DNA of 64,000 nucleotides from the NCBI GenBank assembly GCA_046705145.1, contig JBJKQO010000033.1, forward strand, positions 4,023 through 68,022. Direction: 5' to 3'. A program made the translations under genes and the position numbers. Within the stretch, counting starts at the first letter, position 1, and the number at the start of each line of letters is the position of its first letter. Origin of the DNA: Candidatus Woesearchaeota archaeon (GTDB lineage: Archaea > Nanobdellota > Nanobdellia > Woesearchaeales > JBJKQO01). Shown piece by piece: positions 17,023 to 60,822 of the stretch. The notes below the pieces were generated by a model. The model was not told the origin of the DNA, made no database searches, and worked only from the letters and a program-made list of their open reading frames with translations.

Positions 17023-17721
17023 ATGAAATCATTGATATTTGATACAGGGCCGATAATAAGCCTCACGATGAACAACCTGATGTGGATACTTGTACCCCTA
17101 AAGAAAAAGTTTGGAGGCGAGTTCTACTGTGCTGAATCAGTCAAAAATGAGCTTGTAGACAAGCCACTTACCACAAAAAAGTTCAAGTTCGAGGCGCTAC
17201 ACACCCTAAGATACATGAAAGACAAGACCCTTATCGTAGACTCCTCAGAAGAAACAAAAGACCTTGCCATTAGGCTGCTGTCTATAGCAAACAGCATATT
17301 TTCTGCCCACTCAAACAATATTCAGATCGTCCATTACGCTGACATGGAGACGCTTGCGCTTGCGATGAAAAAGAAAGCTGAATCTATAGTCACGGACGAA
17401 AGGACTCTTAGGGTGCTGATAGAACGGCCTCAGAGGCTGCATTCCCTTCTTGAGAACAAGCTTCACATGAAAGTAAACCTGGACAAGGAAAAGCTTAACG
17501 AGTTTAAGCAAGAGGTTGGAAAGATAAACGTGATAAGGTCCATCGAGCTTGTAACCATCGCATACGAGATGGGCCTGCTTGACCCCTATCTCCCAGACAT
17601 GAAAGAAAGCCATGAAACCTTGCTTTCAGCACTCCTCTGGGGAGTCAAGTGCAATGGCTGCGCTGTTTCTGTAGACGAGATTGATCGGATAATATATCTT
17701 GAGTCAAAGATGAAAAAGTAA
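17023..17721 (+). CDS. PIN-like domain protein (putative nuclease)
   Basis: MKSLIFDTGPIISL N-terminus with a PIN-type acidic quartet (D7, E~40, D~98, TDE~118). Confidence 0.4.
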   Translation: MKSLIFDTGPIISLTMNNLMWILVPLKKKFGGEFYCAESVKNELVDKPLTTKKFKFEALHTLRYMKDKTLIVDSSEETKDLAIRLLSIANSIFSAHSNNIQIVHYADMETLALAMKKKAESIVTDERTLRVLIERPQRLHSLLENKLHMKVNLDKEKLNEFKQEVGKINVIRSIELVTIAYEMGLLDPYLPDMKESHETLLSALLWGVKCNGCAVSVDEIDRIIYLESKMKK

Positions 17722-17841
17722 GCTATCATGGCTTAAGCATCCAAAACCAGTCGACGTCGACGAAAGATTTATAAATAAGAAAGTTTTGGATTAAGGAATT
17801 AGGGGGTTTTTGATAATCCTATAAAAGGAGGTTGATACAAA

Positions 17842-18075
17842 ATGGCTAAAAAAGTAGCAAAATGTGGAGTTAAAAAAGAGAAAGGATGGCTGTATTTTGT
17901 TGACAAACAAGGCGACGTGTCACGAGCAGAGATGGCTCGCGGCGGAAAGAAGAAAGGAAAGAAGAAGAAGGAAAAAGTCGCAAAAGTTGGTGTCAAGAAA
18001 GAATCAGGATACCTTTACTTCATCGACAAGCAAGGAGATATATCCTGCGCTAAGATGGCAAGAGGAAGAAAGTAA
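17842..18075 (+). CDS. small basic protein with two internal ~33-aa repeats
   Basis: VAKCGVKKEKGWLYFVDKQGDVSRAEMARG repeats as VAKVGVKKESGYLYFIDKQGDISCAKMARG. A strong AAGGAGGT Shine-Dalgarno sequence lies 8 nt upstream. Confidence 0.5.
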   Translation: MAKKVAKCGVKKEKGWLYFVDKQGDVSRAEMARGGKKKGKKKKEKVAKVGVKKESGYLYFIDKQGDISCAKMARGRK

Positions 18076-18100
18076 TTTTTCTATTCTATTTTTTTCTTTT

Positions 18101-18775
18101 TTAGATTTTTATTCTTTTTCTGGTTTCATCATATCTTTTGTTCAAGTCCCGAATCTTTTCAAGATCGTCGTCAGATAGGCCCCTTAACCTTTCAAGGATT
18201 GCCTTCTTGTCAAGTTTTCCTGAAAGCTCAACATAAGCTATATCCCTGACTTTTTCGGCAAGCATCTTCTGGCCGTCCCAGGGCAGATCTTTCCTTAACG
18301 CATCCATGTACTCGCGTATGACCTGATTGTTGTGCTGCATCTGCTCCAAGTCGACAAATACAGGCTTATCACCTAACAACATAATCATATCATCATCTTC
18401 ACGACATATTGCCTGGTCCAAAAGCAAGGTCTCCTTTTCAAAAATATCCTCATCCTTACAAGGATATGCCTCAAATGACCTTAATTTACCCTCTAAAAAA
18501 GCCCTTGCAGGAAACGCAAGGCAAGCCAAAGGCTTTATATCATGGATCTCACACTGCCCCTTAAGGAAAGGACAGGGTTGTTTCAGGCAGATCCTTGCCT
18601 GATAAAATAGAGGAGGGACAACAAGCATGGGGATTATGTCACAATATCTTTCAAAGAACTTCTCAGGAGCTATTTCCAGGCGGCTTGCAGCCCTAAATAT
18701 GAAGCCAGCCTCTACTGCAACAGGCATGAGCTTCTCCTTGCAGCAGGGCTTTTCCTTGCAGTTCTTGCAGTCCAT
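18101..18775 (-). CDS. YkgJ/UPF0153 family zinc/iron-chelating domain protein
   Basis: CKNCKEKPCC (CxxCxxxCC) with additional conserved Cys. Confidence 0.55.
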   Translation of the reverse strand: MDCKNCKEKPCCKEKLMPVAVEAGFIFRAASRLEIAPEKFFERYCDIIPMLVVPPLFYQARICLKQPCPFLKGQCEIHDIKPLACLAFPARAFLEGKLRSFEAYPCKDEDIFEKETLLLDQAICREDDDMIMLLGDKPVFVDLEQMQHNNQVIREYMDALRKDLPWDGQKMLAEKVRDIAYVELSGKLDKKAILERLRGLSDDDLEKIRDLNKRYDETRKRIKI

Positions 18776-18904
18776 GATATGGCTTTAAAACAGCAAAGTA
18801 TATATTATTTAGCATGATCCTTTGTTGTTACTACTTTAGAATGCTATAAAAACGAAAAGTTTAAATACTAGTTATACTACTCTATAGTGATATAATCAAA
18901 AAAC

Positions 18905-19045
18905 CAAAGGCGATCATGATCACCTCTTTTTCCCAGCAGAACGCTTTTCCTCGGAAAAGCGTTTTGCCGGGTTTTATAATCCTAATCACCTCTTTTCCCC
19001 AGCAAGAATCTCCTCGTGAGATTCTTGCCAGGGTTTTAACAATAG
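18905..19045. repeat. two tandem ~65-nt hairpin-containing repeat units
   Basis: tcacctctttt(t)cccagca + hairpin + tgccgggttttaWaat occurs twice. The hairpin arms differ but stay complementary (aacgcttttcc/ggaaaagcgtt versus aagaatctcc/ggagattctt). Confidence 0.5.
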
Positions 19046-19129
19046 ACTTCTTTAGAACCATTAAACAAACTGTTATTTCAAGAAAGAAAAAGAAAAGATA
19101 GAAAGATAATATAAAAAAAATTATGAGAC

Positions 19130-20785
19130 CTAATACATGTCTCCGCCCATACCGCCAGGCATTCCAGGAGGCATCCTTGGCTCAGGACCTTTTCCTCCTG
19201 CAATCACATCATCTATCCTAAGTATCATCTCTGCAACTTCTGATGCTGACGAGATTGCCTGGGTCTTGATCTTCAGAGGCTCTATAACGCCTGCTTTCCA
19301 GGCGTCAGTGACCTTTCCTTTAAAGACATCTATCCCTGCCCATTTCTGGCCCTTGTCATGCGCAGCCTTAAGCTCCGTCACTACATCGATAGGGTCAAGA
19401 CCTGAGTTTTCTGCAAGTGTCCTTGGCACGATCTCAACTGCCTCTGCAAAAGCCATAGCAGCAAGCTGCTCCCTTCCAGAAAGCGACTCTGCAAACTTCC
19501 TAAGCCCTCTTGAAAGCTCGATCTCAGGTGCGCCTGCGCCTGCAACAACTCCCTTGCTGTTGAGCGCTGCGACAATATCCCCTATTGCATCTTCCATCGC
19601 CCTCTTGATCTCGTCAATAACATGGGTTGTGGCCCCCTTAAGGAGGATAGTCACAGATTTAGGGTTCTTGCAGTCAGTGACATAAGTAAAAGAATCGTCT
19701 CCAACTCTTTTCTCATAGACCTCTCCTGCTGCTCCAAGGTCATCCTTTGACATGGTCTTTATTGAGTTGACCACTTTTGCGCCAGTAGCCCTTGCAAGAG
19801 CGTCCATATCTGATTTCTTGACCCTTCTAGCGACATATATGCCTTTTTTTGAGAAGAAATGCTGTGCGATGTCATCAACCCCCTTCTGGCAGAAGACGAC
19901 GTTTGCGCCTGTTGCAGTGATCATCTCAACCATGTTTTTAAGGGTCTTCTCCTCCTGGTCTATGAATGCCTGAAGCTGCGAAGGATCTGTTATCTGGATC
20001 TTTGCGTCTGTCTCAGGACCTTTTATCTCGATAGCTGAATCAACCAGCGCAATCTTTGCGCTCTTGACTGATTTGGGCATCCCTGAATGTACCCTTTCCT
20101 TGTCAAGAACGATCCCTGAGACCATCTCTGAATCCTCAACGCTTCCCCCGACGTTCTTCTCAAGCTTGACATTGTCCCTGTCTATCACTATCCTGTCGCC
20201 TTCCTTCTCAAGGACGTTCTTTATAGCCTTGACAGCAAGATCTGCAAGCCTCTCCTTTGATGATTCAGCACCTTTTCCGATCATAGCTGTCATTGCTATC
20301 TTCTTTAAGGTAGCCTCGTCTTTTTCAGAGACAGTCTCAGCTATCTTCATAAGTATCTCATGAGCCTTTTCAGCTGCCCTCCTATAACCTTTTACGATGA
20401 CAGTAGGGTGTATATCCTTGTCTATGAGCGCTTCAGCGTTCTTAAGAAGCTCTCCTGCGATTATGACCGCTGTCGTAGTACCGTCGCCTACCTCGTCTTC
20501 CTGCGTCTTAGCGACCTCAACTATCATCTTAGCAGAAGGATGCTCAATGTTTATCTCCTTTAGTATCGTGACGCCGTCGTTTGTAACTATGACATCTCCG
20601 AGAGCATCAACTATCATCTTATCCATGCCTTTAGGGCCAAGAGTTGTCCTTACTGTCTCGGCTACAGCCTTAGCTGCAAGAATGTTGTTGTGCTGGGCAT
20701 TTCTGCCAGTGGTCCTCTGAGTACCCTCAGGAAGTATAAAAATAGGTTGTATGTTATTTGACATCCGTATCACCCCGTTATTCAT
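19130..20785 (-). CDS. ths: thermosome subunit (group II chaperonin)
   Basis: [27 protein letters not shown] and a GGMGG C-terminal tail. The likely start is MSNNIQ at 20764, preceded by GGGGTGA. Confidence 0.9.
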
Positions 20786-39174: not shown

Positions 39175-39280
39175 TGGACCCGGCGGGATTTTCACAATCC
39201 AAAGTATTGAACCCGCTGCCTTCCGCGTTCCGGTCTCAAGAAAAGCCAGGCGGACACTCTACCGATGAGCTACGGGCCCA
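39175..39280 (-). tRNA. tRNA-Ala(GGC) with two introns (anticodon loop and T-loop)
   Basis: Acceptor GGGCCCG/CGGGTCC with the G3:U70 Ala identity pair, D-arm GCTC-ATCGGTA-GAGT, anticodon stem TCCGC/GCGGA with loop CTGGC[16-nt intron]AC, and T-arm GCGGG-TTCAA[17-nt intron]AT-CCCGC. The A discriminator is followed by CTTTTTTT. Confidence 0.6.
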
Positions 39281-42076: not shown

Positions 42077-43087
42077 TCACTCAAATATTCCTGCTATCTT
42101 CTCGCCACAAGACTTACACTTTCCTTTCCTGATGTTGTTTTCAGAGACAAAGAAACCCTCTCTTGATATCAGCTCCTTGCCGCATCTAGGGCACAGTGTA
42201 GATCTCTTAAGATCAGTTGGAACATTTCCAGGATAGACATATCTTAATCCTGCTTCTTTTCCTAGCTTTTGCGCAAGCCTGATCTTTTCAATAGGGGTGG
42301 GGGGGACATCGCCATATTTGTAGTGCGGATAGAACCTTGATATGTGCCAGGGGATATTTTTGTCATTTCCTGCTATAAACTCAGCGATCTTCCTAAGCTC
42401 ATCTTCTGAATCGTTCTTTTCAGGTATGATAAGGGTAGTTATCTCAACCCATATGCCCATGTCATGCATCCTTTTGATATTCTCAAGGACCGGCTTAAGC
42501 CTTCCGCCTATCACTTTTTTGTAGAACCCATCATCAAACGATTTAAGATCGACATTTGCAGCATCAACAAGGCCTTCTGCAAGACCTAAAGCCTGTTCTG
42601 ACATGAAACCGTTTGTCACTATCACATTTCTTATGCCCTCTTTTTTTGCTATCCTAGCAATATCAAGCATATACTCCCAAAAGACTGTAGGCTCAGTATA
42701 AGTGTAAGATATGCTTTCACAGCCATTTTCAACTGCCTCTTTCACTGCTGCCTCGGGAGGTATATTATCCCCCCTTATGATTCTCCCTGAAGCCTGAGAG
42801 ATATCGCTGTTCTGGCAGAATTCACATGAAAAATTGCATCCTACTGTAGCGATTGAATAAGACCTTGATCCAGGAAGGAAATGATAGAGGGGTTTCTTCT
42901 CGATAGGGTCTATTGCTCTTGAGACTGGCTTGCCATAAACGAGGCTGTAGAGCCTTCCCCCTTTGTTTTCCCTGACTGAACACCTGCCTATTTTCCCTTC
43001 TGGGATAAGACAAAAATGGCTGCAAAGCTCGCATTGTACAGAACTATCATTCAATTTCTTATATAGTATTGCTTCTTTCATAAGCAT
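42077..43087 (-). CDS. AmmeMemoRadiSam system radical SAM enzyme
   Basis: CELCSHFCLIPEGKIGRCSVREN...YG...DPIEKKPLYHF...GCNFSCEFCQN fits the PflA-like family. Confidence 0.7.
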   Translation of the reverse strand: MLMKEAILYKKLNDSSVQCELCSHFCLIPEGKIGRCSVRENKGGRLYSLVYGKPVSRAIDPIEKKPLYHFLPGSRSYSIATVGCNFSCEFCQNSDISQASGRIIRGDNIPPEAAVKEAVENGCESISYTYTEPTVFWEYMLDIARIAKKEGIRNVIVTNGFMSEQALGLAEGLVDAANVDLKSFDDGFYKKVIGGRLKPVLENIKRMHDMGIWVEITTLIIPEKNDSEDELRKIAEFIAGNDKNIPWHISRFYPHYKYGDVPPTPIEKIRLAQKLGKEAGLRYVYPGNVPTDLKRSTLCPRCGKELISREGFFVSENNIRKGKCKSCGEKIAGIFE

Positions 43088-49041: not shown

Positions 49042-50088
49042 TTATTGGATCATTATTTCAATCCCATCCTGATGACGCTGAGGGTGATCATGTTTCACTC
49101 CCTTTTCATCTAATACTTTATAAGCCGGTTTAAGCAGGCCATCTAGAACAGATCCGATCTGGGCGGCAATACATTTCATATTTGCAAGAATTGTGGCTTT
49201 GTTTTTAGGTGATGAGTCCCTTAATGTATTTGCAGTTGAAAGATAGGTGGCATATAACCCCCACAGTTTTTCAAAACATGATGTATCAAGCTTAACTTCA
49301 ATTCTGGTTGGATCGGTATATATCTCATCAAGGTCATATCCTTGTTCAGGTCTTGCAAAACAGATTACTCTTCTGTTAGGCTCAACCCCATAAATATCCA
49401 TAACCCTCCTTTCTGAATCTGGATCAAATACCCTCAAGATGAATCTAGGTTGAGATCCTTCTTCAGCAGAATAAGACATTAGATATGTTGAGTTTAAGTT
49501 TCTTCTTATCATTTTTCCTCTTGTTACAAAGGGGTATGATATATGATGATCCTCTTTAGCCATTTTGTTTATTGCTCCTATCAAAGAGTCTAACATCTCT
49601 GAACCTGAATTCGCAATCACTATAGTGCCATCTAGTCTATGATATCCTATTAGATCTGGAGAAAGAAATTGACCTGTACTGATATCCACATTACAGGGAA
49701 CATCTTTAAAAGCTTCGGTGAGTTCATCGATTGTAGTTTCAGGACGCAGAAAAGACGCAGTAACAATGCCTGCATGAGAAGGATGTGTTCTTTGTTGCAC
49801 AATATAGGAACTTAGTTTTTCTGCGAGTCCGCCTTTAATATGAGATTTAGGCATCATATTTAGGAGGGAAGGATTTTTAAAATCAACATGCCAAACATCA
49901 ACAATTTCAGGATTGGGAGTGTCAACTAAAGGCAAACCATCTACCACCCTTACCTCCTGAATAATGTCTCCAAATTGATCCCAAAAGGTTCTAAAAACCC
50001 CATCTTCACACTTTAACAGTTTTCTCCTTAGTGTTGAATCATCAAAAAAAAATCCCGGCATGTATATTCTTGCTTGTCCTTCACTCAT
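49042..50088 (-). CDS. hypothetical protein (second gene of the cluster)
   Basis: 348 aa, no known motif. Confidence 0.4.
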   Translation of the reverse strand: MSEGQARIYMPGFFFDDSTLRRKLLKCEDGVFRTFWDQFGDIIQEVRVVDGLPLVDTPNPEIVDVWHVDFKNPSLLNMMPKSHIKGGLAEKLSSYIVQQRTHPSHAGIVTASFLRPETTIDELTEAFKDVPCNVDISTGQFLSPDLIGYHRLDGTIVIANSGSEMLDSLIGAINKMAKEDHHISYPFVTRGKMIRRNLNSTYLMSYSAEEGSQPRFILRVFDPDSERRVMDIYGVEPNRRVICFARPEQGYDLDEIYTDPTRIEVKLDTSCFEKLWGLYATYLSTANTLRDSSPKNKATILANMKCIAAQIGSVLDGLLKPAYKVLDEKGVKHDHPQRHQDGIEIMIQ

Positions 50089-50139
50089 GCTTATCCCCTC
50101 TCATAAGATATTTCTCTGAATGTGTCTCTTCTAACTAAT

Positions 50140-50706
50140 TTATCTGCCACATTTTGCTTCATCTAAAGTTATGGTTATAAGATTGGACTTTTGATTGTAG
50201 GGTAGATCAAGCGCTAGTACCGTAGGATGTATTCTTGAGTCAAATGCTTCAGCAATAAGCTGAGCTCCAGTATAAGGATCTAATTCTCCCTCTAGACCAA
50301 ACTCTCTTAATGCTTGATTTACTATAGCTGGGGAAGCAATGTAAATTTGTGCTTTTCTTGGTACAAACAAACTTCCGGGTTTTCTGACAATGGATTCTAT
50401 TTCAGAAGTCGCTAAATCGTTGGGTTTAGGCTTTGCAGTCACCAGCCCATTATAAACCGCCAATAAACACGCAAGATATTCCACAACTGCACCTTGACGA
50501 ACATTTAGTTCAGATCCTTCTTTTTCATAGGTAGTAGAGCATGTTTCGCAGTTGAACTCCAGAAGAGACAGACCCTGTATCAACCTTGTGCAACGTGCTA
50601 TCTCTAAAAATGTTTCACGCAATTCATCTTTAGGGATAGTAGTATCGGGTACTGCTATCATCCCAACATAAGCATTGATATTTGGCATTTCTGGTTCGCT
50701 CATTTT
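50140..50706 (-). CDS. hypothetical protein (first gene of the cluster)
   Basis: The likely start is MKMSEPEM at 50706. Confidence 0.4.
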   Translation of the reverse strand, partial: KMSEPEMPNINAYVGMIAVPDTTIPKDELRETFLEIARCTRLIQGLSLLEFNCETCSTTYEKEGSELNVRQGAVVEYLACLLAVYNGLVTAKPKPNDLATSEIESIVRKPGSLFVPRKAQIYIASPAIVNQALREFGLEGELDPYTGAQLIAEAFDSRIHPTVLALDLPYNQKSNLITITLDEAKCGR

Positions 50707-50820
50707 CATATCCCCCCAAAACCATTTCAAGATTATTATTTTAAAGTAGAAACACTTTTTCATATTTAAAGCCGCATTTGAAGATTTTTTGTAAAAAAGA
50801 ACTATTTAGGGGAGAAATAG

Positions 50821-52020: not shown

Positions 52021-52098
52021 CTATTCACAACGACATTCGCAATCTGCAGGGACCAACTCTTTTAGATCATATTGTTCCCTTGTTTTTTTCTTTTCCAT
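52021..52098 (-). CDS. micro-ORF P8 of the CECRxE family (MEKKKTREQYDLKELVPADCECRCE)
   Basis: 25 aa. GGAGGG Shine-Dalgarno sequence 6 nt upstream of ATG. The C-terminus DCECRCE-stop matches the family consensus. Confidence 0.4.
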   Translation of the reverse strand: MEKKKTREQYDLKELVPADCECRCE

Positions 52099-52647
52099 GA
52101 TTATCCCTCCTTGATTTTTATTAAAATCAGGATATTCCTATAATTATCCTATTTAGATAATAGTTTATTGAAATATTTAAAATAATATTATTAAAATTTT
52201 TGTACTTCCTAAAATATTTAACTAAATATTAAAAAAATTGAAATGAATCTAAAAAAAATATGGAAAAACTCAAAATATTGGTTATAAATTATAATATATA
52301 AAATATATTTCTCTCAATTTTTTTATAAAATCACTTATTAATAAATTTATAGGAAAAATACAAAATATATCTCAGTTTACACCCGTATATTTCACTAGTA
52401 ACTTTCAGCCTAAACATTAATCCATCCGAAAAAGAGAAAAGAAAAACCGAACCAAGCCCTGAGGGCAAGCATACTCGTTAACTTATTAGAAGGTTAAATA
52501 CATAAAATTATGTGTTTAATAAGTGTATTTTACTTTGCGAAAAGTAATGCTTTTATTATAAACAAGCAAACCCCTGGTTTGTACTATCTCTAGTTTAGTA
52601 ATTATGAGATTGAATTTTATTAAAATCCCACTATAACTTTGAAGGAT

Positions 52648-53514
52648 TTATTGTGCTGTAATCCTAGTTAATAAAACTGCTGAAACTAAGATTAAAATTA
52701 TTCCCCCTATCTGTAAAATATTAAATTTTTCATCTAAAACAAAGAATTCAAATAATGCGGTTATTGCAGGAACAGCAGATATCATTAAAGCAGCAATAGA
52801 CGGGCCCTCTAATTCAATTCCTTTGTAAAAAGTTATTACCCTCAATCCACTAAATATGCCTGAAAGTAATACCCATATAAAACCATATTTTATAGTAGAT
52901 AAACCCTCCATCCCTAAAAATGGGATTAAAAGCAGAAGAAATAATGCTCCAAATATATATCTTCCAACTACCATTGTCAAAGAATCCATCTTTTCCATGC
53001 CTTTTTTTGCATAAGAATTGCAGAACCCGCTTATAGGCACAGTCAGGAAAATAAGCCAATCTCCATTATTAGGCATCTGCATGAATCCTTTAGTTGTTAA
53101 CATAATCAAACCAAGTATCATCGTTACCATAACAGGATAAAAAATTTTAGGCATCTTTTCTCCCATAATTGAATATGCAAAAATAAGTGTAAACACAGGA
53201 TATAAACTCATAATAGCCCCTTTATTTGTTGCAGTAGTGTATTTTAATGCAGATATCATCAACACAACTCCTAATCCTGAAGCAAGTACACCTATAACTG
53301 CTATATACTTCACATGTTTCATATCAAATCTCAATGATGATTTTTTCCCTAAAGCTAGCCATACTGCCACAACAAAACATAAACTGAAAAATACTCTTAA
53401 GAACGAAAAGAGTGAAGGATCCACCCCTTTGCCTATACCAATTTTATCAAAGAGGTTAACAGAAGCAAAAGCAAAAATAGATATTAATAGATAGACTATT
53501 CCTTTTGTTTTCAT
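52648..53514 (-). CDS. EamA/DMT superfamily transporter
   Basis: Ten predicted TM helices arranged as two EamA-like repeats. Confidence 0.65.
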   Translation of the reverse strand: MKTKGIVYLLISIFAFASVNLFDKIGIGKGVDPSLFSFLRVFFSLCFVVAVWLALGKKSSLRFDMKHVKYIAVIGVLASGLGVVLMISALKYTTATNKGAIMSLYPVFTLIFAYSIMGEKMPKIFYPVMVTMILGLIMLTTKGFMQMPNNGDWLIFLTVPISGFCNSYAKKGMEKMDSLTMVVGRYIFGALFLLLLIPFLGMEGLSTIKYGFIWVLLSGIFSGLRVITFYKGIELEGPSIAALMISAVPAITALFEFFVLDEKFNILQIGGIILILVSAVLLTRITAQ

Positions 53515-53592
53515 TTTATTCAGGTTAAGGTTTATTACTTTTAGCTTAGTGAAGAGATAAGCTAGCCAAACAAAATTTATTAAGACAATAAC

Positions 53593-55641
53593 TCAACTGC
53601 ACAACCCATATTTCTTGCATGCAGTGTAGATACTTCCGACGGTGGACTCTGCCTCTGTTAAGGTTGAAAAATTTTTATCTCCTTTGAACAAAGAATATAA
53701 TTTTTCTGATATCTGCCCGAGAGAATAATACCCTTTAAAGAAGATAAGAAACTCAAAAAACTCTTTTGGAAGGTCTCTGAAAAAACAGGTATTTACCTTT
53801 ATAGCTTCACTTTTGTTTGGGGCATAAACATATCGATTTTCTTTTCCATTATAAAAAAGCATGATCTCCTTTTTTCTACTTGGATGGGCAGTTTTTTCTT
53901 TGTATTTCTCTTCTTTAGCATAAGAGATTGACGGACTCCCAAAAGAATCCACTAACCCCTCATCTTTTAGCTTCTGGATACAACGATCAACTTCAAGGTC
54001 AACAATCTCTTTATTACCATATAATCTTAGCAGTTTTTCTTTTATTTCACTTAATTCATAAGCCCCATCAAGATAATGTGCTATATCCGCCCTTAATGAC
54101 CTTATTAAAACCTTATCATCAACATCCGACGGCAGACTACCTAAAATTTCAATTGCATTGAGAATACTTTTTGGGTCGTTAAAAAAAGGGCTGTCACTAA
54201 CTGCTTGTTCCTGAAGCCCTACATCTCTCTGCCCCCTACCAAACTCTGTGCTTGGATATGCCAGGATCAGATAGCACATCGCTCTTAGCGCCCTTTCATT
54301 ATCCCACCCATACTTCCTGCAATCCTGCCTGAAATCAAGCTGGTTTAAAGTCCCTCTCATTATGATGCCTGTTTCTTCCCTCTCCTTAAACCTTTCTTGA
54401 GTGGGTATGATGTCTCTGCTAAGCGCTGGCTGGATGATAAAATCATGATTTTTTGATCCGATATCATTTAGCAGACAAAAGGTCTTCCTGCTTGATCTTG
54501 CCGATGATCCCGGATAACCCTCAATAAGGAAAAGCCTGCATGATATCCCTTCATTACCGATTATGTTCAGCGCATTGGCAGCCTTGTTTTCCGTACCTAT
54601 CTTATTCATGTTTTCAAGCACTACATCGTCGCTGCACTCAACTCCTATCCCTACCTCCTGACATCCTGCCTTTGCAAGGTACTCTGCAAACCTTTTTGTT
54701 ACCCTGTCAGACCGGGTATAGCACCTGAACCCGAATTCAGGATAGTCTTTTTTAAAAATTGAGACTTCAGAAAGAAAATCTTCTGTTTTCCCCATATTTA
54801 TCCCAAACGTTAGGTCTATTATATAGAATTTAGGAATACCCATGCTAAACATGTAACGGATCTCATTTAGAGTATTGCCAAAATCCCTTTCAACGTATGT
54901 TTTCTTTGCTGCACAAAACTCACACTGAAACGGGCATCCTTTAGCCAGCTCAACAAGTCCTAAAACGAACATATTTTTAGTTGAGCAATGTTCAATAATA
55001 TCCTTTATCAGGCCTGTCCTCTTGCCATATATCTGCTCAGGAGCCAAGTTGATTACTTCCTGTTTTTTTACTATTTCATTAACCTTAACTCCCTGTTTAT
55101 CCCTTAATAGTAAGCCTGGCATGGCTAGATCCTTTTTTCCTGCCTTTAAAGCATTTATAAAACCTGCCAGGTGATGATTTGATTCCCCTATCCAGGCATA
55201 GTCTATATTAGGGCAAAACTTGAAAATTCTATCCCTTAAATGAGTTATTGCCTGACCCCCAACGATTATCCTGCAATTTGGAAGCTTTTCCTTTATCTTA
55301 GTTGTCAAAAAATCTATGCTGTCTGTGTTTGCCTGCGCGATCAGGGTAGTCATCACAATATCAGGGCGCTCTTTCGCAATAAGGTCTATCAGTTCCATAT
55401 TTGACATTGAAGGATCTTTAAACCATTCATAATCAAGCAGTAGTAGATCAGATTGGATACCATAATGGTCAAGTATTGCTGTCACCTCAAATGGTATCCT
55501 TGGGAGAATGAAGTATCTATTTCCGATATTCTCTTTGACGTACCTGCCCTTTTCAGTGTGTTCAAGGGAGGTAGTGTTTGGCGGGTTTACAAAGATGACC
55601 TTCATTTTATCCTCTTGTATCATGATACCTACACATATCAC
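53593..55641 (-). CDS. B12-binding domain radical SAM protein (class B) with a ~250-aa C-terminal extension
   Basis: The N-terminal Rossmann-like region (MKVIFVNPP...IIVGGQAITH) resembles a cobalamin-binding domain. Radical SAM motif GCPFQCEFC. The likely start is 55605. Confidence 0.7.
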   Translation of the reverse strand: MICVGIMIQEDKMKVIFVNPPNTTSLEHTEKGRYVKENIGNRYFILPRIPFEVTAILDHYGIQSDLLLLDYEWFKDPSMSNMELIDLIAKERPDIVMTTLIAQANTDSIDFLTTKIKEKLPNCRIIVGGQAITHLRDRIFKFCPNIDYAWIGESNHHLAGFINALKAGKKDLAMPGLLLRDKQGVKVNEIVKKQEVINLAPEQIYGKRTGLIKDIIEHCSTKNMFVLGLVELAKGCPFQCEFCAAKKTYVERDFGNTLNEIRYMFSMGIPKFYIIDLTFGINMGKTEDFLSEVSIFKKDYPEFGFRCYTRSDRVTKRFAEYLAKAGCQEVGIGVECSDDVVLENMNKIGTENKAANALNIIGNEGISCRLFLIEGYPGSSARSSRKTFCLLNDIGSKNHDFIIQPALSRDIIPTQERFKEREETGIIMRGTLNQLDFRQDCRKYGWDNERALRAMCYLILAYPSTEFGRGQRDVGLQEQAVSDSPFFNDPKSILNAIEILGSLPSDVDDKVLIRSLRADIAHYLDGAYELSEIKEKLLRLYGNKEIVDLEVDRCIQKLKDEGLVDSFGSPSISYAKEEKYKEKTAHPSRKKEIMLFYNGKENRYVYAPNKSEAIKVNTCFFRDLPKEFFEFLIFFKGYYSLGQISEKLYSLFKGDKNFSTLTEAESTVGSIYTACKKYGLCS

Positions 55642-55726
55642 ACGAAATATTCATCCTACAGAAATCACCCCTTCTGAATCAAAAAAAATCCAAATTCAAT
55701 CAAACAATTTCGTTCATCATCTGATC

Positions 55727-55792
55727 CTACTCACATTTAGTCTCAAAATCAAACGATGCAATCTTCAAAATGCACCATTCATTATTACCCAT
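55727..55792 (-). CDS. micro-ORF P1 (MGNNEWCILKIASFDFETKCE), a truncated family member
   Basis: Shares NEWCIL-IAS with P2. A TAG replaces the Cys codon of the CEC motif. Its ATG lies 1 nt after the P2 stop. Confidence 0.3.
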   Translation of the reverse strand: MGNNEWCILKIASFDFETKCE

Positions 55793-55793
55793 A

Positions 55794-55862
55794 TTATTCC
55801 ATCCTGCACTCACAATTAAGCGATGCTATCCCTAAAATACACCATTCATTAATATTAACCAT
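55794..55862 (-). CDS. micro-ORF P2 (MVNINEWCILGIASLNCECRME)
   Basis: 22 aa with the conserved C-terminus NCECRME-stop. Tightly packed with P3 and P1 through GAATAAtATGG junctions. Confidence 0.4.
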   Translation of the reverse strand: MVNINEWCILGIASLNCECRME

Positions 55863-55863
55863 A

Positions 55864-55923
55864 TTATTCAATCCTGCACTCGCAATTGATTGTTTCAAGT
55901 TTTAACAGTTTTATTTCATCCAT
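55864..55923 (-). CDS. micro-ORF P3 (MDEIKLLKLETINCECRIE)
   Basis: 19 aa. GAGGTGG Shine-Dalgarno sequence 5 nt upstream. Conserved NCECRIE-stop. Confidence 0.4.
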   Translation of the reverse strand: MDEIKLLKLETINCECRIE

Positions 55924-55973
55924 TATTCCACCTCGGATATATTGGATTGTCAAAGACTCTATAGTCTTGTTTC

Positions 55974-56027
55974 TCATTCGAGCCTGCATTCACAGATGAC
56001 ATCTATTTTAGTTAGAGTTTGTTCCAT
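55974..56027 (-). CDS. micro-ORF P4 (MEQTLTKIDVICECRLE)
   Basis: 17 aa. AGGAG Shine-Dalgarno sequence 4 nt upstream. Conserved ICECRLE-stop. A hairpin aagactctatagtctt follows downstream. Confidence 0.4.
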   Translation of the reverse strand: MEQTLTKIDVICECRLE

Positions 56028-56156
56028 AGTCTCCTACCTCAACAGTATAGTTGCATTTAGATAGTCCTATAAGTGAATGATATATAATAAACTTGTTCCA
56101 TAAATTTTTGTAAAAACGCAAAATTTATATATCGAATAGGAATATCTTATATAATA

Positions 56157-57164
56157 ATGGCAGATCTAGATAAGATTGATATTAAACTACTGGCAATCCT
56201 GGAAGAAGATGGCAGACAATCCTTATCGCAGATAGCAAAAAAGCTCAATACTTCTCAACAGGTTGTCAGCTACAGGATCAAATCTCTTGAAAAAAGGAAT
56301 ATCATAGGAGGATATTATACATTCATAAATTTTCTAAGGCTAGGCTATACCAGTTTCAGGACGATGATATCATTCAGCAACATAAATAAAACCAAACATA
56401 AGGAGATCATCTCTTTTCTTATGGATCATCCGAACGTCCTTTGGCTTGTTGACTGCAGCGGAAGGTGGGACCTGATAATTAACTTTCTGGCAAAAAACAT
56501 CATCCAGTACGAATCGATGTTCAATGAGTTCAGAAAAATGTTTCCAGACCAGATCCAAAACTATGACATACTCCCAACAGTTGAAGTGTCTTATTTCGGA
56601 AGAGATTACATAATGAAAAAACATAGGGACCTCAGAAAGAGTTCACTTCTCGGAAAAGAGTACGGGACAGACAGCCTGGACTTACTAAACTATAACATCC
56701 TTAAGATGATCTCAAAAAATGCAAGAATCCCTGCAGTTGAGATAGCAAATAAGCTTAAAGTTAGCCCTAACACTGTAATCCTTCGGCTTAATGAGCTAAA
56801 AAGAACCGGCATGATACAAGGTTATACCACGCTACTTCATCTGGATTATACAGGTTATAGCAGTTACAAGGCATTAATAAAGATATTTAATACGACCGAA
56901 GAAAAGGAAAATGCAATAATCAATAACCTGAGGTCTAACGTGAATGTAGTTGGATTCGTGAAACTTGTAGGATCCTGGAACTTTGAGATAGAATTTGAAG
57001 TAGAAACAAATGAGCAGATGATTGAACTCACAAGAGATATTAGAGACCGGTTCAGGGACAATATCAAGGAATTTGAGATAATCCAACTGCTTCACGAGTA
57101 TAAGTATGACTTCTTTCCTGGAGACCTGCTGGAAGACAACCCTAAAAAAAGCAATAAAAAATAA
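56157..57164 (+). CDS. double-domain Lrp/AsnC-like regulator, array paralog 1
   Basis: DIKLLAILEEDGRQSLSQIAKKLNTSQQVVSYRIKSL and NILKMISKNARIPAVEIANKLKVSPNTVILRLNEL HTHs, each followed by a RAM-like domain. C-terminus LHEYKYDFFPGDLLE. Confidence 0.65.
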   Translation: MADLDKIDIKLLAILEEDGRQSLSQIAKKLNTSQQVVSYRIKSLEKRNIIGGYYTFINFLRLGYTSFRTMISFSNINKTKHKEIISFLMDHPNVLWLVDCSGRWDLIINFLAKNIIQYESMFNEFRKMFPDQIQNYDILPTVEVSYFGRDYIMKKHRDLRKSSLLGKEYGTDSLDLLNYNILKMISKNARIPAVEIANKLKVSPNTVILRLNELKRTGMIQGYTTLLHLDYTGYSSYKALIKIFNTTEEKENAIINNLRSNVNVVGFVKLVGSWNFEIEFEVETNEQMIELTRDIRDRFRDNIKEFEIIQLLHEYKYDFFPGDLLEDNPKKSNKK

Positions 57165-57174
57165 CAAGGATCAA

Positions 57175-57243
57175 TCATTCAACCCTGCATTCACAATTAT
57201 CAGTTTCGACAGGTTTTAACTCATAATAGTGTTCTTCGACCAT
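57175..57243 (-). CDS. micro-ORF P5 (MVEEHYYELKPVETDNCECRVE)
   Basis: 22 aa. GGAGGG Shine-Dalgarno sequence 8 nt upstream. Divergent from Lrp paralog 2; its stop lies 10 nt past the stop of paralog 1. Confidence 0.45.
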   Translation of the reverse strand: MVEEHYYELKPVETDNCECRVE

Positions 57244-57357
57244 TTTAGTTCCCTCCTAAGTTATAATAATGTATAACTTCGAGATTAATTAAAGTATACG
57301 CCATATTTTTTTGTTAAATCGAAATATTTATATATAATTATTATATACCACAAAAAT

Positions 57358-58365
57358 ATGGTAATACTTGATAAAACCGATTTAAAGTTATTGTCGGAAT
57401 TAGATGATGATGCAAGACAGACCGTTTCAAAGATAGCAAAAACCCTAAACACCTCACAACAGGTCATCAGTTTCCGAATTAACTCCCTAAAGAGGAAAGA
57501 GATCATAAGCGAATACTACTCAATAATTAATTTTACAAAGCTGGGTTACACAAGTTACAGGACAATGATACGCTTCAGCAACATAAACAAGCAAAAACAC
57601 CAAGAGATCATAAAATATTTAACAGATCATCCAAACGTGCTATGGCTCGTCGACTGTGGTGGAAGATGGGATCTCCTCGTTAACTTTTTGGCAAAAGATA
57701 TAAAACAATACAGCATCATGTTCAATTCTTTTAAGAGCAGATTCCCGCAGCAGATAAGAAATTATGATGTCTTGACCACAATCGATTTTGTCTATCCTGG
57801 AAGAGCCTATTTATTTGGGCGAAAACCTGATAAGCCTAACAGGCCTTATGTAGGGATAGAAAGAGAGAAAGTAACCCTAGACAACACAGACTTAAACATC
57901 CTAAAAATGATATCTGAGGATGCGAGGCTAAGTAGTGTGATAATAGGCAATCACTTGGGGATAAGCTCTAATACTGTTATGACCCGGATAAAAGAGATGG
58001 GGAAAAAAGGGGTTCTTCTTGGAGCAAAGCCCCTAATCCATCTCGAAAACACCCCTTACAGGGGATATAAGGCACTTATTAAGTTTCAGGACATAACAGA
58101 AGAAAAAGAAAAAAGCATCATAAGCTTCCTGATGGAATTCGAGAATATAGTCGGCATAATAAGGATGGTGGGGATGTGGGATTTTGAGTTAGAGATCGAG
58201 TCAGAAAAACAGGAGGATGTGGTCGATATGATGAGATCCCTTCGGGACAGGTTCCATGATGTGATAAAAGAGTTTGAGATGTTCCCTTTGTTTCACGAAT
58301 ATAAGTACAACTTCTTTCCCAGAGATCTGCTGGAAGAGCATTCTGGCGAAAATATAACAAAGTAA
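57358..58365 (+). CDS. double-domain Lrp/AsnC-like regulator, array paralog 2
   Basis: Same architecture as paralog 1, about 50% identical. C-terminus FHEYKYNFFPRDLLE. Confidence 0.65.
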   Translation: MVILDKTDLKLLSELDDDARQTVSKIAKTLNTSQQVISFRINSLKRKEIISEYYSIINFTKLGYTSYRTMIRFSNINKQKHQEIIKYLTDHPNVLWLVDCGGRWDLLVNFLAKDIKQYSIMFNSFKSRFPQQIRNYDVLTTIDFVYPGRAYLFGRKPDKPNRPYVGIEREKVTLDNTDLNILKMISEDARLSSVIIGNHLGISSNTVMTRIKEMGKKGVLLGAKPLIHLENTPYRGYKALIKFQDITEEKEKSIISFLMEFENIVGIIRMVGMWDFELEIESEKQEDVVDMMRSLRDRFHDVIKEFEMFPLFHEYKYNFFPRDLLEEHSGENITK

Positions 58366-58443
58366 CAAAAATAATAAGCCCTGATGTTTCTATCCGGGTT
58401 ATTGCGCAAAATATAATTCGTGTTCAAGCTGATTTAGGCAATA

Positions 58444-58512
58444 TCACTCCATCCTAGCTTCGCAATCATCAGGGTCTAATTCTTCCAATTTGAATTTTGT
58501 TTCTTCCTCCAT
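58444..58512 (-). CDS. micro-ORF P6 (MEEETKFKLEELDPDDCEARME)
   Basis: 22 aa. GGAGGT Shine-Dalgarno sequence 6 nt upstream. Variant C-terminus DCEARME-stop. Confidence 0.4.
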   Translation of the reverse strand: MEEETKFKLEELDPDDCEARME

Positions 58513-58637
58513 TTTATACCTCCAAGCAGGTTATACTGCTCATAGTATATAGTGACATGAAAAATAATAAAACCTGTATGTTATAATATTTGTAAAATAG
58601 GAAAATTTATATAATAAAAGAAAATATAACAAAAATT

Positions 58638-59636
58638 ATGAAAAAAATTGATAAGATAGATCTCAAGATCATGTCTGCTTTAGACGATGATGCACATTGT
58701 TCGCTGTCTAGGTTAGCTAAAAAATTACAAACCTCCCAACAGGTCATAAGCTTTAGGCTGCAGTCCCTTAAAAAAAGGGGCATAATCAGCTCATTCTTTA
58801 CAGTTATTGATTTTACAAAGTTGGGATATACCAATTACAGGACAATGATCCGCTTTAGTAATATTGATGAAAAACGACATAAAGAAATAATTTATTTCCT
58901 AAGGGATCATCCCAGTGTGCTTTGGATCGTTGACTGCAGCGGAAGGTGGGACATTATAGTAAACTTTATGGCAAAGGACATAAGAAGGTATAACCTAATC
59001 ATAAGGGAATTTATCAATAGGTTTCCTGACCAGATCCAAAACTATGATGTTCTCACGACAGTTGAGCTATTGTATTTCAAAAGGGATTACTTTGACAAGA
59101 ATCATAGAAAAATAGATATCCTGCCCTATTTTGCTGATAACACTGAAATAATGAGTTTGGATGATATGAATATCAAAATCCTTGACCTTATATCAGAAGA
59201 TGCTAGACTTAGCTCAGTCGTAATAGCAAATAAGCTAAAACTAACTCCAAAGACCGTCCTTGCCAGGATAAAAGAGATGAAAAAAGAAGGTATCATCTGG
59301 GGATTTAAGCCGCTTATACATCTCGAAAACACCCCTTACCGCAGCTTTAAGGCTTTTGTGAAATTCCAAAACATAACTGAACAAAAAGAAAAACAGATCA
59401 TAGCCTTTTTTTCAGATAAGGCTAATGTGGTAGGTGTGATCCGTATGATAGGTCTTTGGGATTTTGAGGTGGAAATCGAGTCAGAAAGCCAGGAATATGT
59501 GATAAAACTCACAAGGGATTTCAGGGATAGATTTAAAGACATAATCAAAGAATTTGAGATAGTCCCCCTATTTCATGAGTACAAGTATAACTTCTTCCCA
59601 AGAGAACTAGTTAAAAAGAATGATACAAATACATAG
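58638..59636 (+). CDS. double-domain Lrp/AsnC-like regulator, array paralog 3
   Basis: Same architecture. C-terminus FHEYKYNFFPRELVK. Confidence 0.65.
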   Translation: MKKIDKIDLKIMSALDDDAHCSLSRLAKKLQTSQQVISFRLQSLKKRGIISSFFTVIDFTKLGYTNYRTMIRFSNIDEKRHKEIIYFLRDHPSVLWIVDCSGRWDIIVNFMAKDIRRYNLIIREFINRFPDQIQNYDVLTTVELLYFKRDYFDKNHRKIDILPYFADNTEIMSLDDMNIKILDLISEDARLSSVVIANKLKLTPKTVLARIKEMKKEGIIWGFKPLIHLENTPYRSFKAFVKFQNITEQKEKQIIAFFSDKANVVGVIRMIGLWDFEVEIESESQEYVIKLTRDFRDRFKDIIKEFEIVPLFHEYKYNFFPRELVKKNDTNT

Positions 59637-59642
59637 TCTCAT

Positions 59643-59705
59643 TTTATTCTGCCCTAGTCTCACAGGCATCAGGTTCTATTTTTTCGAATTCTTTGTTTTT
59701 TATCA
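59643..59705 (-). CDS. micro-ORF P7 (MIKNKEFEKIEPDACETRAE)
   Basis: 20 aa. GGAGGT Shine-Dalgarno sequence 7 nt upstream. Variant C-terminus ACETRAE-stop. Confidence 0.4.
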
Positions 59706-59826
59706 TTTTATAACCTCCTTATACATCTTCATCATAGTAAGTACTTTCAAAATTTATATAATTAATCACCATAATATTTTGTAAAATAACAAAATTTATA
59801 TAATATATCATCATAACACAATAAAT

Positions 59827-60822
59827 ATGACTAAAATGGATAAGTTTGATATGAAACTGCTTGCAGTGCTTGAGGAGGATGCAAGGCAAACCTCATCAAA
59901 AATAGCCAAAAGATTAAACACGTCACAACAGGTAGTCAGTTACAGGATCAAATCTCTGGAAAAAAGGAAGGTCATCATAGGATATTATCCTATCATTAAC
60001 ATCACAAAATTGGGTTACACAAGTTACAGGACAATGTTTCGGTTGAATGACACTGACAAGAAGACCCATTCAGAGATTGTCAAATACCTGAAAGAGAATT
60101 CCAATGTTTTGTGGTTTGTTGACTGCGGCGGAAGATGGGACCTAATAGTCAATTTTATAGCAAGGAATATCCTCCATTATAGCGCCCTATTAAGAGATTT
60201 CAGAAATTCCTTTAAGGGCCTGGTACAAAACCCTGATGTTCTTACGACTATTGAAATGATCCATCTGGGAAGAGAATACCTTACCAAAAAAAAGAGAGAA
60301 ATCATGGAACCCCCTCATTTCGGAAGAGAAGAAGAAAAAATTCTGCCTGACTTGACTAACCTGAAAATACTCAAAATCCTCTCAAAAGACGCCAGAACTA
60401 ATTCGGTACAGATTTCACAGGAACTAGGGATAAGGCCGAGTACAGTTATGCTAAGGATAAAAGACATGAAAAAGTCTGGAATTATCCAAGGGTTTAGGGC
60501 GCAGCTCAACTTAGAAAATACACCTTACAAAGGGTATAAGGCAGTCGTGAAATTCCAGAACATAACTGAAGAAGTAGAGCATGATATCATAGGTTACCTA
60601 AATCAGGACGTAAGGGTTTACGCAATAATAAGGATTATAGGCCTCTGGGACTTTGAGATAGAATTTGAGGTCGAGAATAATGAGCAGATGCTTGAGCTGA
60701 CAAGGTCTTTTAGGGACAAGTTCAAGGAACATATCAAAGAATTTGAGGTAATACCCCTATTCCATGAGTACCGCTACAACTTCTTTCCTGGAGACCTGCT
60801 GGAAAACAACGCAAAACTATAA
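59827..60822 (+). CDS. double-domain Lrp/AsnC-like regulator, array paralog 4
   Basis: Same architecture. C-terminus FHEYRYNFFPGDLLE. Confidence 0.65.
   Translation: MTKMDKFDMKLLAVLEEDARQTSSKIAKRLNTSQQVVSYRIKSLEKRKVIIGYYPIINITKLGYTSYRTMFRLNDTDKKTHSEIVKYLKENSNVLWFVDCGGRWDLIVNFIARNILHYSALLRDFRNSFKGLVQNPDVLTTIEMIHLGREYLTKKKREIMEPPHFGREEEKILPDLTNLKILKILSKDARTNSVQISQELGIRPSTVMLRIKDMKKSGIIQGFRAQLNLENTPYKGYKAVVKFQNITEEVEHDIIGYLNQDVRVYAIIRIIGLWDFEIEFEVENNEQMLELTRSFRDKFKEHIKEFEVIPLFHEYRYNFFPGDLLENNAKL

Follow-up and report, generated by a model that had tools for sequence, protein, structure and literature searches.

A candidate system of very short precursor peptides, a cobalamin-type radical SAM enzyme and a tandem Lrp regulator in DPANN archaea

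Cobalamin-dependent (class-B) radical S-adenosyl-l-methionine (SAM) enzymes act in several pathways for peptides made on ribosomes and then modified post-translationally (RiPPs), including those of PoyB and PoyC, the bottromycin methylases, the TIGR03975 family and ApyD of aminopyruvatide. In these pathways precursor genes stand beside an enzyme that combines a B12-binding domain and a CX3CX2C core with docking of the kind provided by a RiPP recognition element (RRE). Here we describe a locus of comparable layout, whose enzyme model likewise matches the folds of solved class-B enzymes, in a 64,000-nucleotide stretch of DNA (referred to below as the window) from an archaeon classified as Candidatus Woesearchaeota (contig JBJKQO010000033.1, positions 4,023 to 68,022 of the forward strand). 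The window holds eight putative precursor genes, encoding peptides of 17-25 residues that all end in Glu, and one enzyme gene. We consider it likely that these precursors, a class-B radical SAM-RRE maturase and a tandem Lrp regulator are the three conserved components of a minimal RiPP-type system.

The differences from the known class-B RiPP systems are several. The precursors are ultra-short (only about 17-25 residues, with a putative leader of about 10 residues), they are encoded in tandem, translationally packed arrays, and their C-terminal Glu is invariant. A tandem Lrp protein is an obligatory partner, neither a protease nor an exporter is conserved, and the system is apparently restricted to DPANN archaea. 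Moreover, the enzyme lies far under the cut-offs of the curated families, and methylation would here be an analogy only.

Very short precursors are also a feature of the pathways for pyrroloquinoline quinone (PQQ; PqqA/PqqD/PqqE) and mycofactocin (MftA/MftB/MftC), which resemble the present system further in having their reactive residues at or near the C-terminus and in lacking a dedicated exporter. PqqA has about 23 residues, and its reactive residues include a Glu. However, PqqE and MftC are SPASM enzymes with auxiliary clusters and not of the cobalamin type, the E-x3-Y motif of PqqA and the C-terminal Val-Tyr of MftA are absent from the present peptides, which end in C-E-x-x-x-E, and none of pqqB/C/F or mftD/E/F is conserved in the loci described below. 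A third point of comparison is provided by MgmA and Mmp10, archaeal cobalamin radical SAM C-methylases that act on the side chain or C-alpha of Gln or Arg in methyl-coenzyme M reductase, forming 2-methylglutamine and 5-methylarginine. The present peptides offer conserved Glu residues and, in the window, an Arg. The substrate of MgmA and Mmp10, in contrast, is a large enzyme subunit, folded or nascent, and neither an RRE nor dedicated precursor genes are involved.

A peptide family with a conserved C-terminal Glu

Four precursor micro-open reading frames (micro-ORFs) are located head-to-tail on the minus strand, within 55727-56027, directly before the radical SAM gene. P4 (55974-56027; MEQTLTKIDVICECRLE, 17 residues) heads the array, with GGAG 5 nt before its ATG, and is followed by P3 (55864-55923; MDEIKLLKLETINCECRIE, 19 residues), P2 (55794-55862; MVNINEWCILGIASLNCECRME, 22 residues) and P1 (55727-55792; MGNNEWCILKIASFDFETKCE, 21 residues). 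Downstream of the enzyme gene and of a gene for an EamA/DMT (drug/metabolite transporter) protein lies P8 (52021-52098, minus strand; MEKKKTREQYDLKELVPADCECRCE), so that the coordinates, order and strands agree with the original prediction made from the letters of this DNA. That prediction had all four ORFs of the array preceded by a Shine-Dalgarno sequence and three of them packed through an identical junction, and both statements hold in part. Shine-Dalgarno-like sequences (of the AGGAGG, GGAGGT or GGAG type) stand before P4, P5, P6, P7, P8 and the enzyme gene, but P2 and P1 have none of their own apart from an AGGA contributed by the preceding Arg codon. The junction GAATAATATGG is present in two copies only, at P3/P2 and P2/P1, where each downstream ORF starts 1 nt past the preceding stop codon; the copies are 67-70-nt tandem duplicates. 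P1, which ends F-E-T-K-C-E, is a decayed tandem duplicate of P2 and has lost the Cys at position -6 (counted from the C-terminus), keeping only the Glu residues at -5 and -1.

A six-frame scan of the window revealed three further family members on the same strand beyond 52021-56027, each divergent from its own regulator paralogue: P5 (57175-57243; MVEEHYYELKPVETDNCECRVE), with AGGAGG before its ATG, P6 (58444-58512; MEEETKFKLEELDPDDCEARME, ending ..DDCEARME) and P7 (59644-59706; MIKNKEFEKIEPDACETRAE, ending ..DACETRAE). The eight precursors are thus distributed as four upstream of the enzyme gene, three lone copies facing a regulator and one, P8, downstream of the EamA gene. The pattern C-E-x-R-x-E-stop, which P1 lacks, occurs seven times in the window, always on the minus strand and within 52021-59718, as compared to a mean of 0.04 in 100 mononucleotide shuffles of the window. 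P8 has AGGAGG upstream and no Lrp operator block. It is separated from the EamA gene by a 550-bp AT-rich spacer (52099-52647) with no convincing ORF, which holds a terminator-like hairpin (52567-52581) and, just upstream of P8, the inverted repeat AGGATA-N10-TATCCT.

Comparison with relatives rests on 11 distinct enzyme loci with upstream DNA, namely the window and 10 metagenomic loci, identical contigs being counted once. In all 11 of them one to four tandem micro-ORFs precede the enzyme gene on its strand; in the relatives they occupy the 300-450-bp gap between the enzyme gene and a divergent tandem Lrp gene, and in most arrays successive ORFs are 1-4 nt apart or overlap. The original prediction had named a loss of synteny, or conservation of a bare nucleotide motif, as what would speak against it; micro-ORFs and enzyme have stayed together in 11 of 11 loci, and the ORFs are in frame with synonymous codons. 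Examples from relatives, whose peptides have 19-67 residues, are MEKLYFELEKVQLNCEANVE, MEENYFSLKKITTENCEADME, MEKEYFTLEKVSTQNCEFMGE, ..EPYFALKSIDTKKREANVE and ..AGLEKVCLDDVSCRYE.

The family shares a 17-residue module, [YF]-F-x-L-x-x-[IVL]-x-T-x-N-C-E-x-x-x-E. Among 30 right-aligned peptides, the favoured residues are Tyr at -17, Phe or Tyr at -16, Leu at -14 (21/30), Ile, Val or Leu at -11, Thr at -9, Asn or Asp at -7, Cys at -6 (23/30), Glu at -5 (27/30) and Ala, Cys or Phe at -4. Positions -2 to -4 vary freely, and the sole invariant residue is the C-terminal Glu, present in 30/30 and, followed directly by the stop codon, in all 35 peptides of a wider set used for the codon counts. The codons of that set vary synonymously: for Cys -6 there are 17 TGT and 11 TGC, for Leu -14 five codons are in use, Glu appears as GAA and as GAG, and the stop codon is TAA in 17 cases, TGA in 9 and TAG in 9. 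Pfam and NCBIfam scans of ten of the peptides, at E-values up to 10, returned no family.

The original prediction had described the family by a conserved C-terminal heptad containing CECR, joined to variable N-termini. P1 is without this heptad. The second Cys and the Arg are features of the window, and even there the second Cys gives way to Ala (P6) or Thr (P7). In the relatives, Ala or Phe predominates at -4 and Asn, Lys or Asp at -3. Searching the homologous loci for the exact ending C[ED]x[RK]x[ED]-stop gave no match, which marks CECR as window-specific and is the reason for using a right-aligned family logo, while related micro-ORFs were found near the enzyme gene in 10/10 of the other loci. 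The N-termini are not variable in the sense proposed, since the window peptides have a common aromatic/aliphatic pattern at -16, -14 and -11. It had also been held that a conserved C-terminus with a variable N-terminus does not suit a leader/core arrangement; this was overstated, as the whole 17-residue module is conserved and its N-terminal part fits a short leader.

Could these ORFs be non-coding, or coding for something simpler? They are very short and few of them were called by gene callers on these contigs, so that regulatory upstream ORFs (uORFs), chance ORFs or a repeated DNA-binding motif have to be considered, together with a minor variant, suggested by the CECR motif of the window, in which the products are small CxC metal-binding peptides. 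However, conserved residues are encoded by synonymous codons and each of the three stop codons occurs, which speaks for conservation of the peptide and against a DNA motif, and the seven motif matches in the window far exceed the 0.04 expected by chance. None of P5, P6, P7 and P8 has a cistron behind it that it could regulate, and the RRE of the enzyme would be without a role if the peptides were not bound. As for metal binding, the peptides of most relatives contain only one Cys, and some (L081, L094_4 and L089_3) not even that, which rules out a CxC site as the function of the family. We therefore reject the uORF, chance-ORF and metal-binding readings, which together appear highly improbable; the original prediction had kept small regulatory and metal-binding peptides as its alternatives. 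The codon evidence indicates that the micro-ORFs are real conserved coding elements.

Two irregular loci were noted among the relatives. In L170 (5814-7726) the enzyme gene is broken into ORFs of 88 and 537 residues, with about 18 residues missing, which may reflect a frameshift, a pseudogene or an assembly error, and its three micro-ORFs are intact. In L090 (5788-5949) a single 53-residue micro-ORF looks like two fused modules, MENRYFVLENIPIDEC... followed by ...ESYFELETVTINGCECKIE, the first of which is without the C-E-x-x-x-E-stop ending.

A class-B radical SAM enzyme with a predicted docking domain

The enzyme gene (53593-55605, minus strand) encodes 670 residues from an ATG at 55605. This start is confirmed by the homologues, all of which begin MK[VI]xFVNPP. 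The assignment to class B made in the original prediction is borne out by Pfam, which gives 51 bits for Radical_SAM (cut-off 29.5) and a marginal 32.6 bits for B12-binding (cut-off 32.1), and by comparison of folds. In an alignment of 24 family members C224-x3-C228-x2-C231, the CX3CX2C motif, is invariant, and a C-terminal extension of about 270 residues is conserved as well. The AlphaFold model of the enzyme (mean predicted local distance difference test score, pLDDT, 87.7) shows an N-terminal B12-binding Rossmann domain, a radical SAM core, a conserved helical linker and a C-terminal RRE, and its best Foldseek matches among structures in the PDB are TsrM (E 2.5e-20), OxsB, MgmA (9ccb), CysS, TokK and AprD4. 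The enzyme is thus predicted to have the class-B radical SAM fold.

The C-terminal domain was modelled with a pLDDT of 90.3. Its last ~100 residues (approximately residues 575-670, encoded at 53596-53883, minus strand) have a topology of three strands followed by three helices, and PqqD is among their closest fold matches, along with MibB, TglI, LynD, TbtB, MccB, NisB and PbtF. The profile of the C-terminal module gave matches at chance level only when run against PDB sequences, so the RRE is visible by fold comparison alone. Pfam found no SPASM domain in the enzyme. By its model the protein carries a C-terminal RRE fold, the hallmark of a peptide-modifying maturase, and the two folds together describe a fusion of class-B radical SAM enzyme and peptide-docking domain. 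An RRE, recognised as a PqqD-like winged helix built on a three-stranded sheet, in the enzyme or in a partner is what one looks for in assigning a system to this kind of family, and the predicted structure places it here within the enzyme. As far as the models go, the system has the structural attributes of a RiPP precursor with an RRE maturase, and its enzyme those of a class-B radical SAM protein. Neither this docking domain nor the conserved regulator discussed below figured in the original prediction.

Six related proteins (P0157 and P0162-P0166; 484-518 residues) share this RRE-containing C-terminal module with the enzyme (E 1e-18 to 1e-28) and resemble it at the N-terminus. They have neither the CX3CX2C motif nor a Pfam Radical_SAM match, and may be paralogues without catalytic activity or partners in docking. 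A separate 336-residue radical SAM gene is present in the window at 42077-43087 (minus strand), 10 kb away.

Tandem Lrp/AsnC regulators and their control regions

In all 11 loci the divergent partner of the enzyme is a tandem Lrp/AsnC regulator. Regulator 1 of the window (56157-57164, plus strand, 335 residues) consists of two complete helix-turn-helix (HTH) plus RAM units in one chain and is divergent from the operon of peptide array and radical SAM gene. Three more paralogues follow on the same strand, regulator 2 (57358-58365, 335 residues), regulator 3 (58638-59636, 332 residues) and regulator 4 (59827-60822, 331 residues), such that 57175-60822 is made up of three tandem modules, each with only a tandem Lrp/AsnC gene on the plus strand and one divergent peptide gene (P5, P6 or P7) on the minus strand. 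Pfam finds two HTH_AsnC/HTH_24 stretches and AsnC_trans_reg (RAM) in these proteins; each half aligns to a complete solved archaeal Lrp/AsnC protein (PH0061, PH1519 or LrpA), and every NCBIfam equivalog cut-off is missed. The described archaeal Lrp/AsnC proteins (FL11, i.e. PH1519, LrpA, LysM and Ss-LrpB) have the same HTH_AsnC and RAM unit and a similar divergent arrangement to the presumed target. Differently from these, the present regulator has two units per chain, and its half-sites are about 38 bp apart, flanking a TATA box.

The control regions were aligned for 18 loci, anchored at the regulator start codon. They share a non-coding block, which reads in order CAT (the reverse start codon), A-TTTTGTA-x-TAT, about 12 nt, T-x-TATAAAT, x-TTGCG-x, TTTTACAAAAAA, about 14 nt and TTTTAT. 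An inverted repeat TTTTGTA / TACAAAA brackets the TATA box, which is located about 27 nt from the regulator ATG, a distance that would fit a leaderless regulator mRNA, and another TATA-like box points towards the peptide genes. Read from the regulator ATG, the stretch separating P4 from regulator 1 (56028-56156) shows a degenerate half-site in the TTTTGTA position, followed by the TATA box TATATAAAT, TTGCG, the half-site TTTTACAAAA and the second TATA-like box; regions 2-4 keep a clearer first half-site, TTTTGT or ATTGT. The pattern TATAAATNTTNNNNTTTWACAAA has exactly four matches in the window, one in each regulator-peptide gap and none upstream of P8, as against 0.07 expected; the TATA box with its TTTTACAAA half-site lies at 56107-56129, 57310-57332, 58589-58611 and 59778-59800 in the four gaps. 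The same block stands before orthologous regulators in 14 other loci, including loci without peptides. The half-sites TTGTA / TACAA presumably resemble the consensus of the Ss-LrpB type. Judging from this arrangement, the tandem Lrp protein probably binds the repeat, autoregulates and controls the divergent promoter.

The enzyme is always accompanied by the regulator, but not the reverse. The regulator family comprises at least 191 clusters, against about 30 for the enzyme family, and among seven loci sampled via the regulator two hold peptides and enzyme (L170 and L171). A regulator specific to this system was rejected on that count. In L168, L169 and L174 the regulator faces unrelated genes. 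In L172 (374-4887) and L173 (772-4882) regulator orthologues are divergent from repeated genes for LivK-type binding proteins with permeases, and in L172 each binding-protein gene is preceded by an ORF of 49-83 residues sharing a ..ITKKIAKHGNQA.. motif. On the contig of L084, which bears a family locus, the stretch 17186-20676 contains a second, more distant tandem Lrp gene (31% identity) together with two further radical SAM genes transcribed divergently from it, one of 458 residues and B12-type, the other of 352 residues.

The pairing of regulators with peptides raises the question of whether the tandem Lrp proteins take the peptides, in modified or unmodified form, as signals or ligands, each paralogue sensing the peptide encoded opposite, loosely as in RRNPP pairs. 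There are four tandem regulator-peptide units, three of which contain nothing but a regulator and one peptide gene. The four window paralogues are 50-58% identical to one another, the same as to orthologues from other genomes, which means that the modules are not recent copies and suggests diversification. Ligands of Lrp RAM domains are amino-acid-like and have a free carboxylate. However, RRNPP pairs involve a secretion signal and a tetratricopeptide-repeat (TPR) receptor, while the present peptides are 17-25 residues long and charged, have no hydrophobic signal segment and no conserved exporter, and their partner is of the Lrp/AsnC and not the TPR type. The four operators are nearly identical, so that specificity at the DNA level has not diversified, and segmental duplication, copying a gene along with its divergent promoter, accounts for the pairing with no need for contact between protein and peptide. 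The ligand model is weakened because orthologous regulators with the same operator work without a peptide or radical SAM gene (L168, L169 and L172-L174), and we regard it as quite improbable.

Proposed pathway, its weak points and its distribution

The conserved unit is the regulator, the peptide array and the enzyme. The original prediction had proposed a layout of precursors, radical SAM maturase and exporter, of which precursors and maturase are retained and the exporter is not. The EamA/DMT gene (52648-53514, minus strand, 288 residues) was correctly named (Pfam EamA, E 3.6e-39), but tblastn against 15 related loci (10 with the enzyme family and 5 with the regulator only) found no homologue of it, nor of the downstream methyltransferase, nor of two adjacent proteins of 348 and 207 residues at 49042-50763 (minus strand) that are without Pfam or NCBIfam matches. 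All of these were therefore rejected as conserved parts of the cluster. The methyltransferases found near L081 and L170 are unrelated to that of the window, and the gene tables of the related loci contain no recurring protease or transporter. The comparison marks the EamA transporter as accessory to this locus, where it may export the product. Elsewhere in the window, Rfam identifies a tRNA of 105 nt at 39175-39279 (minus strand, 45.5 bits) where ARAGORN in bacterial mode called none; its length suggests an intron-containing archaeal tRNA, which, together with the TATA-type promoters, underlies the reading of this DNA as archaeal.

In the RiPP-type pathway that we favour, the N-terminal stretch [YF]-F-x-L-x-x-[IVL] would serve as a short leader and the C-terminal hexapeptide C-E-x-x-x-E, with its free carboxylate, as the core. 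The leader stretch would dock to the RRE by adding a strand, in the manner of TbiB1, PqqD and NisB, and the core would be presented to the [4Fe-4S]/SAM/cobalamin active site. All eight window peptides would be substrates of the single enzyme, and the divergent regulator would bind TTTTGTA...TACAAAA flanking its own TATA box, next to the peptide promoter. Given the lack of a conserved protease, the peptide, short as it is, may be active without cleavage. Taking the class-B peptide methylases MgmA, Mmp10 and PoyC as models, the reaction could be a cobalamin-dependent C-methylation of an unactivated carbon of the core, with Glu -5 and the C-terminal Glu as prime sites, an idea to which we give a somewhat less than even chance. 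A crosslink or other radical chemistry may be formed instead, because OxsB, AprD4 and BchE share the fold.

Several observations weigh against this proposal. The chemistry is a guess, and the modification itself is a proposal; not every class-B radical SAM enzyme is a methylase, since OxsB, BchE and AprD4 are not. The assignment of the RRE depends on predicted structure, because Pfam PqqD matches to the C-terminal domain are weak (best E 0.0012, in 4/20 members). The enzyme stays under every curated NCBIfam cut-off, the best match being PhpK with 89.5 bits against 600, and under those of the curated class-B families, BchE included, with 44 against 282 bits for TIGR03975, 53 against 750 for ApyD and 25.6 against 360 for MgmA (TIGR04014). 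In contrast to many RiPP clusters, the system has neither a protease or leader peptidase nor an exporter that is conserved with it. As some peptides are without Cys -6 or Glu -5, only the C-terminal Glu can be obligatory in the core. Lastly, the regulator is not specific to the system, because the same family with the same operator also adjoins unrelated genes such as those for LivK-like binding proteins.

Because only the C-terminal Glu is invariant and neither exporter nor protease is conserved, a serious rival is a scaffold route that would yield a small product derived from Glu and would parallel PQQ, mycofactocin or the pearlins. The peptides would be consumed as scaffolds on which the C-terminal Glu, alone or with Glu -5 or Cys -6, is modified and then freed by a general peptidase as a metabolite or cofactor, the Lrp regulators sensing its supply. 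The free variation at positions -2 to -4, next to a Glu found in 35/35 peptides, and the several tandem gene copies per locus, which fit stoichiometric consumption, agree with such a role, as do the LivK-type amino-acid binding proteins and permeases adjoining regulator orthologues and the presence of PqqD among the closest folds of the docking domain and of MgmA, a glutamine C-methylase, among those of the catalytic part. On the other hand, no peptidase or other tailoring enzyme is conserved nearby, the enzyme is without the SPASM/twitch domain of PqqE and MftC, and the product is wholly conjectural; on balance we find this route unlikely. A low but appreciable probability is given to the broader notion that the radical SAM-RRE fusion turns the C-terminal Glu of such scaffolds, with Glu -5 or Cys -6, into a new product derived from an amino acid (a metabolite, a cofactor or a signal), its synthesis being governed by tandem Lrp regulators that possibly sense it.

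Whichever product is made, the RiPP-type system that we favour has a narrow distribution. About 30 full-length enzyme homologues were found (38-50% identity), all of them metagenomic, and the few that carry names are assigned to Nanoarchaeota, Nanoarchaeia, Aenigmatarchaeota and Woesearchaeota, labels on which the DPANN assignment of the system relies. Only 23 clusters among 1.84 billion representative proteins match the profile of the C-terminal module, which makes the enzyme family rare. An enzyme-based scan of genome contigs recovered generic class-B radical SAM genes only, at most 27% identical and mostly bacterial (from cyanobacteria and others), and no true relatives. Phage and viral collections gave no match to the system, and a phage or viral origin was rejected on that basis. 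All loci are on DPANN-labelled or unlabelled metagenomic contigs, and the system is apparently restricted to DPANN-type archaea, which are uncultured and have reduced genomes. To our knowledge, such archaea are not expected to make their own cobalamin, and archaeal RiPPs have barely been explored. Our search of the published literature on combinations of DPANN, RiPP, radical SAM, AsnC and cobalamin-RRE found no description of the system, two candidate papers being silent on it. A survey of archaeal RiPPs makes no mention of B12 radical SAM enzymes or of Lrp, and refers to DPANN and Nanoarchaeota only in its tallies of biosynthetic gene clusters (PMC12144867).

The system thus looks like an undescribed family of enzymatically modified peptides, and it is compact and testable, with one enzyme that has a built-in docking domain and substrates of 17-25 residues that are cheap to synthesise. 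Should the scaffold route be true, it would represent a new class of RiPPs or peptide-derived metabolites with chemistry new for class-B enzymes, the four regulator-peptide modules would be a diversified array for sensing and production, and DPANN-type archaea would keep a private three-gene pathway despite their reduced genomes. If the peptides are modified, they would form a new precursor family defined by the invariant C-terminal Glu, possibly with new class-B radical SAM chemistry, the conserved tandem Lrp operator could be put to use as an operator/promoter model for this widespread family of DPANN regulators, and the locus would provide a first lead on the peptide products of these presumed symbiotic organisms.

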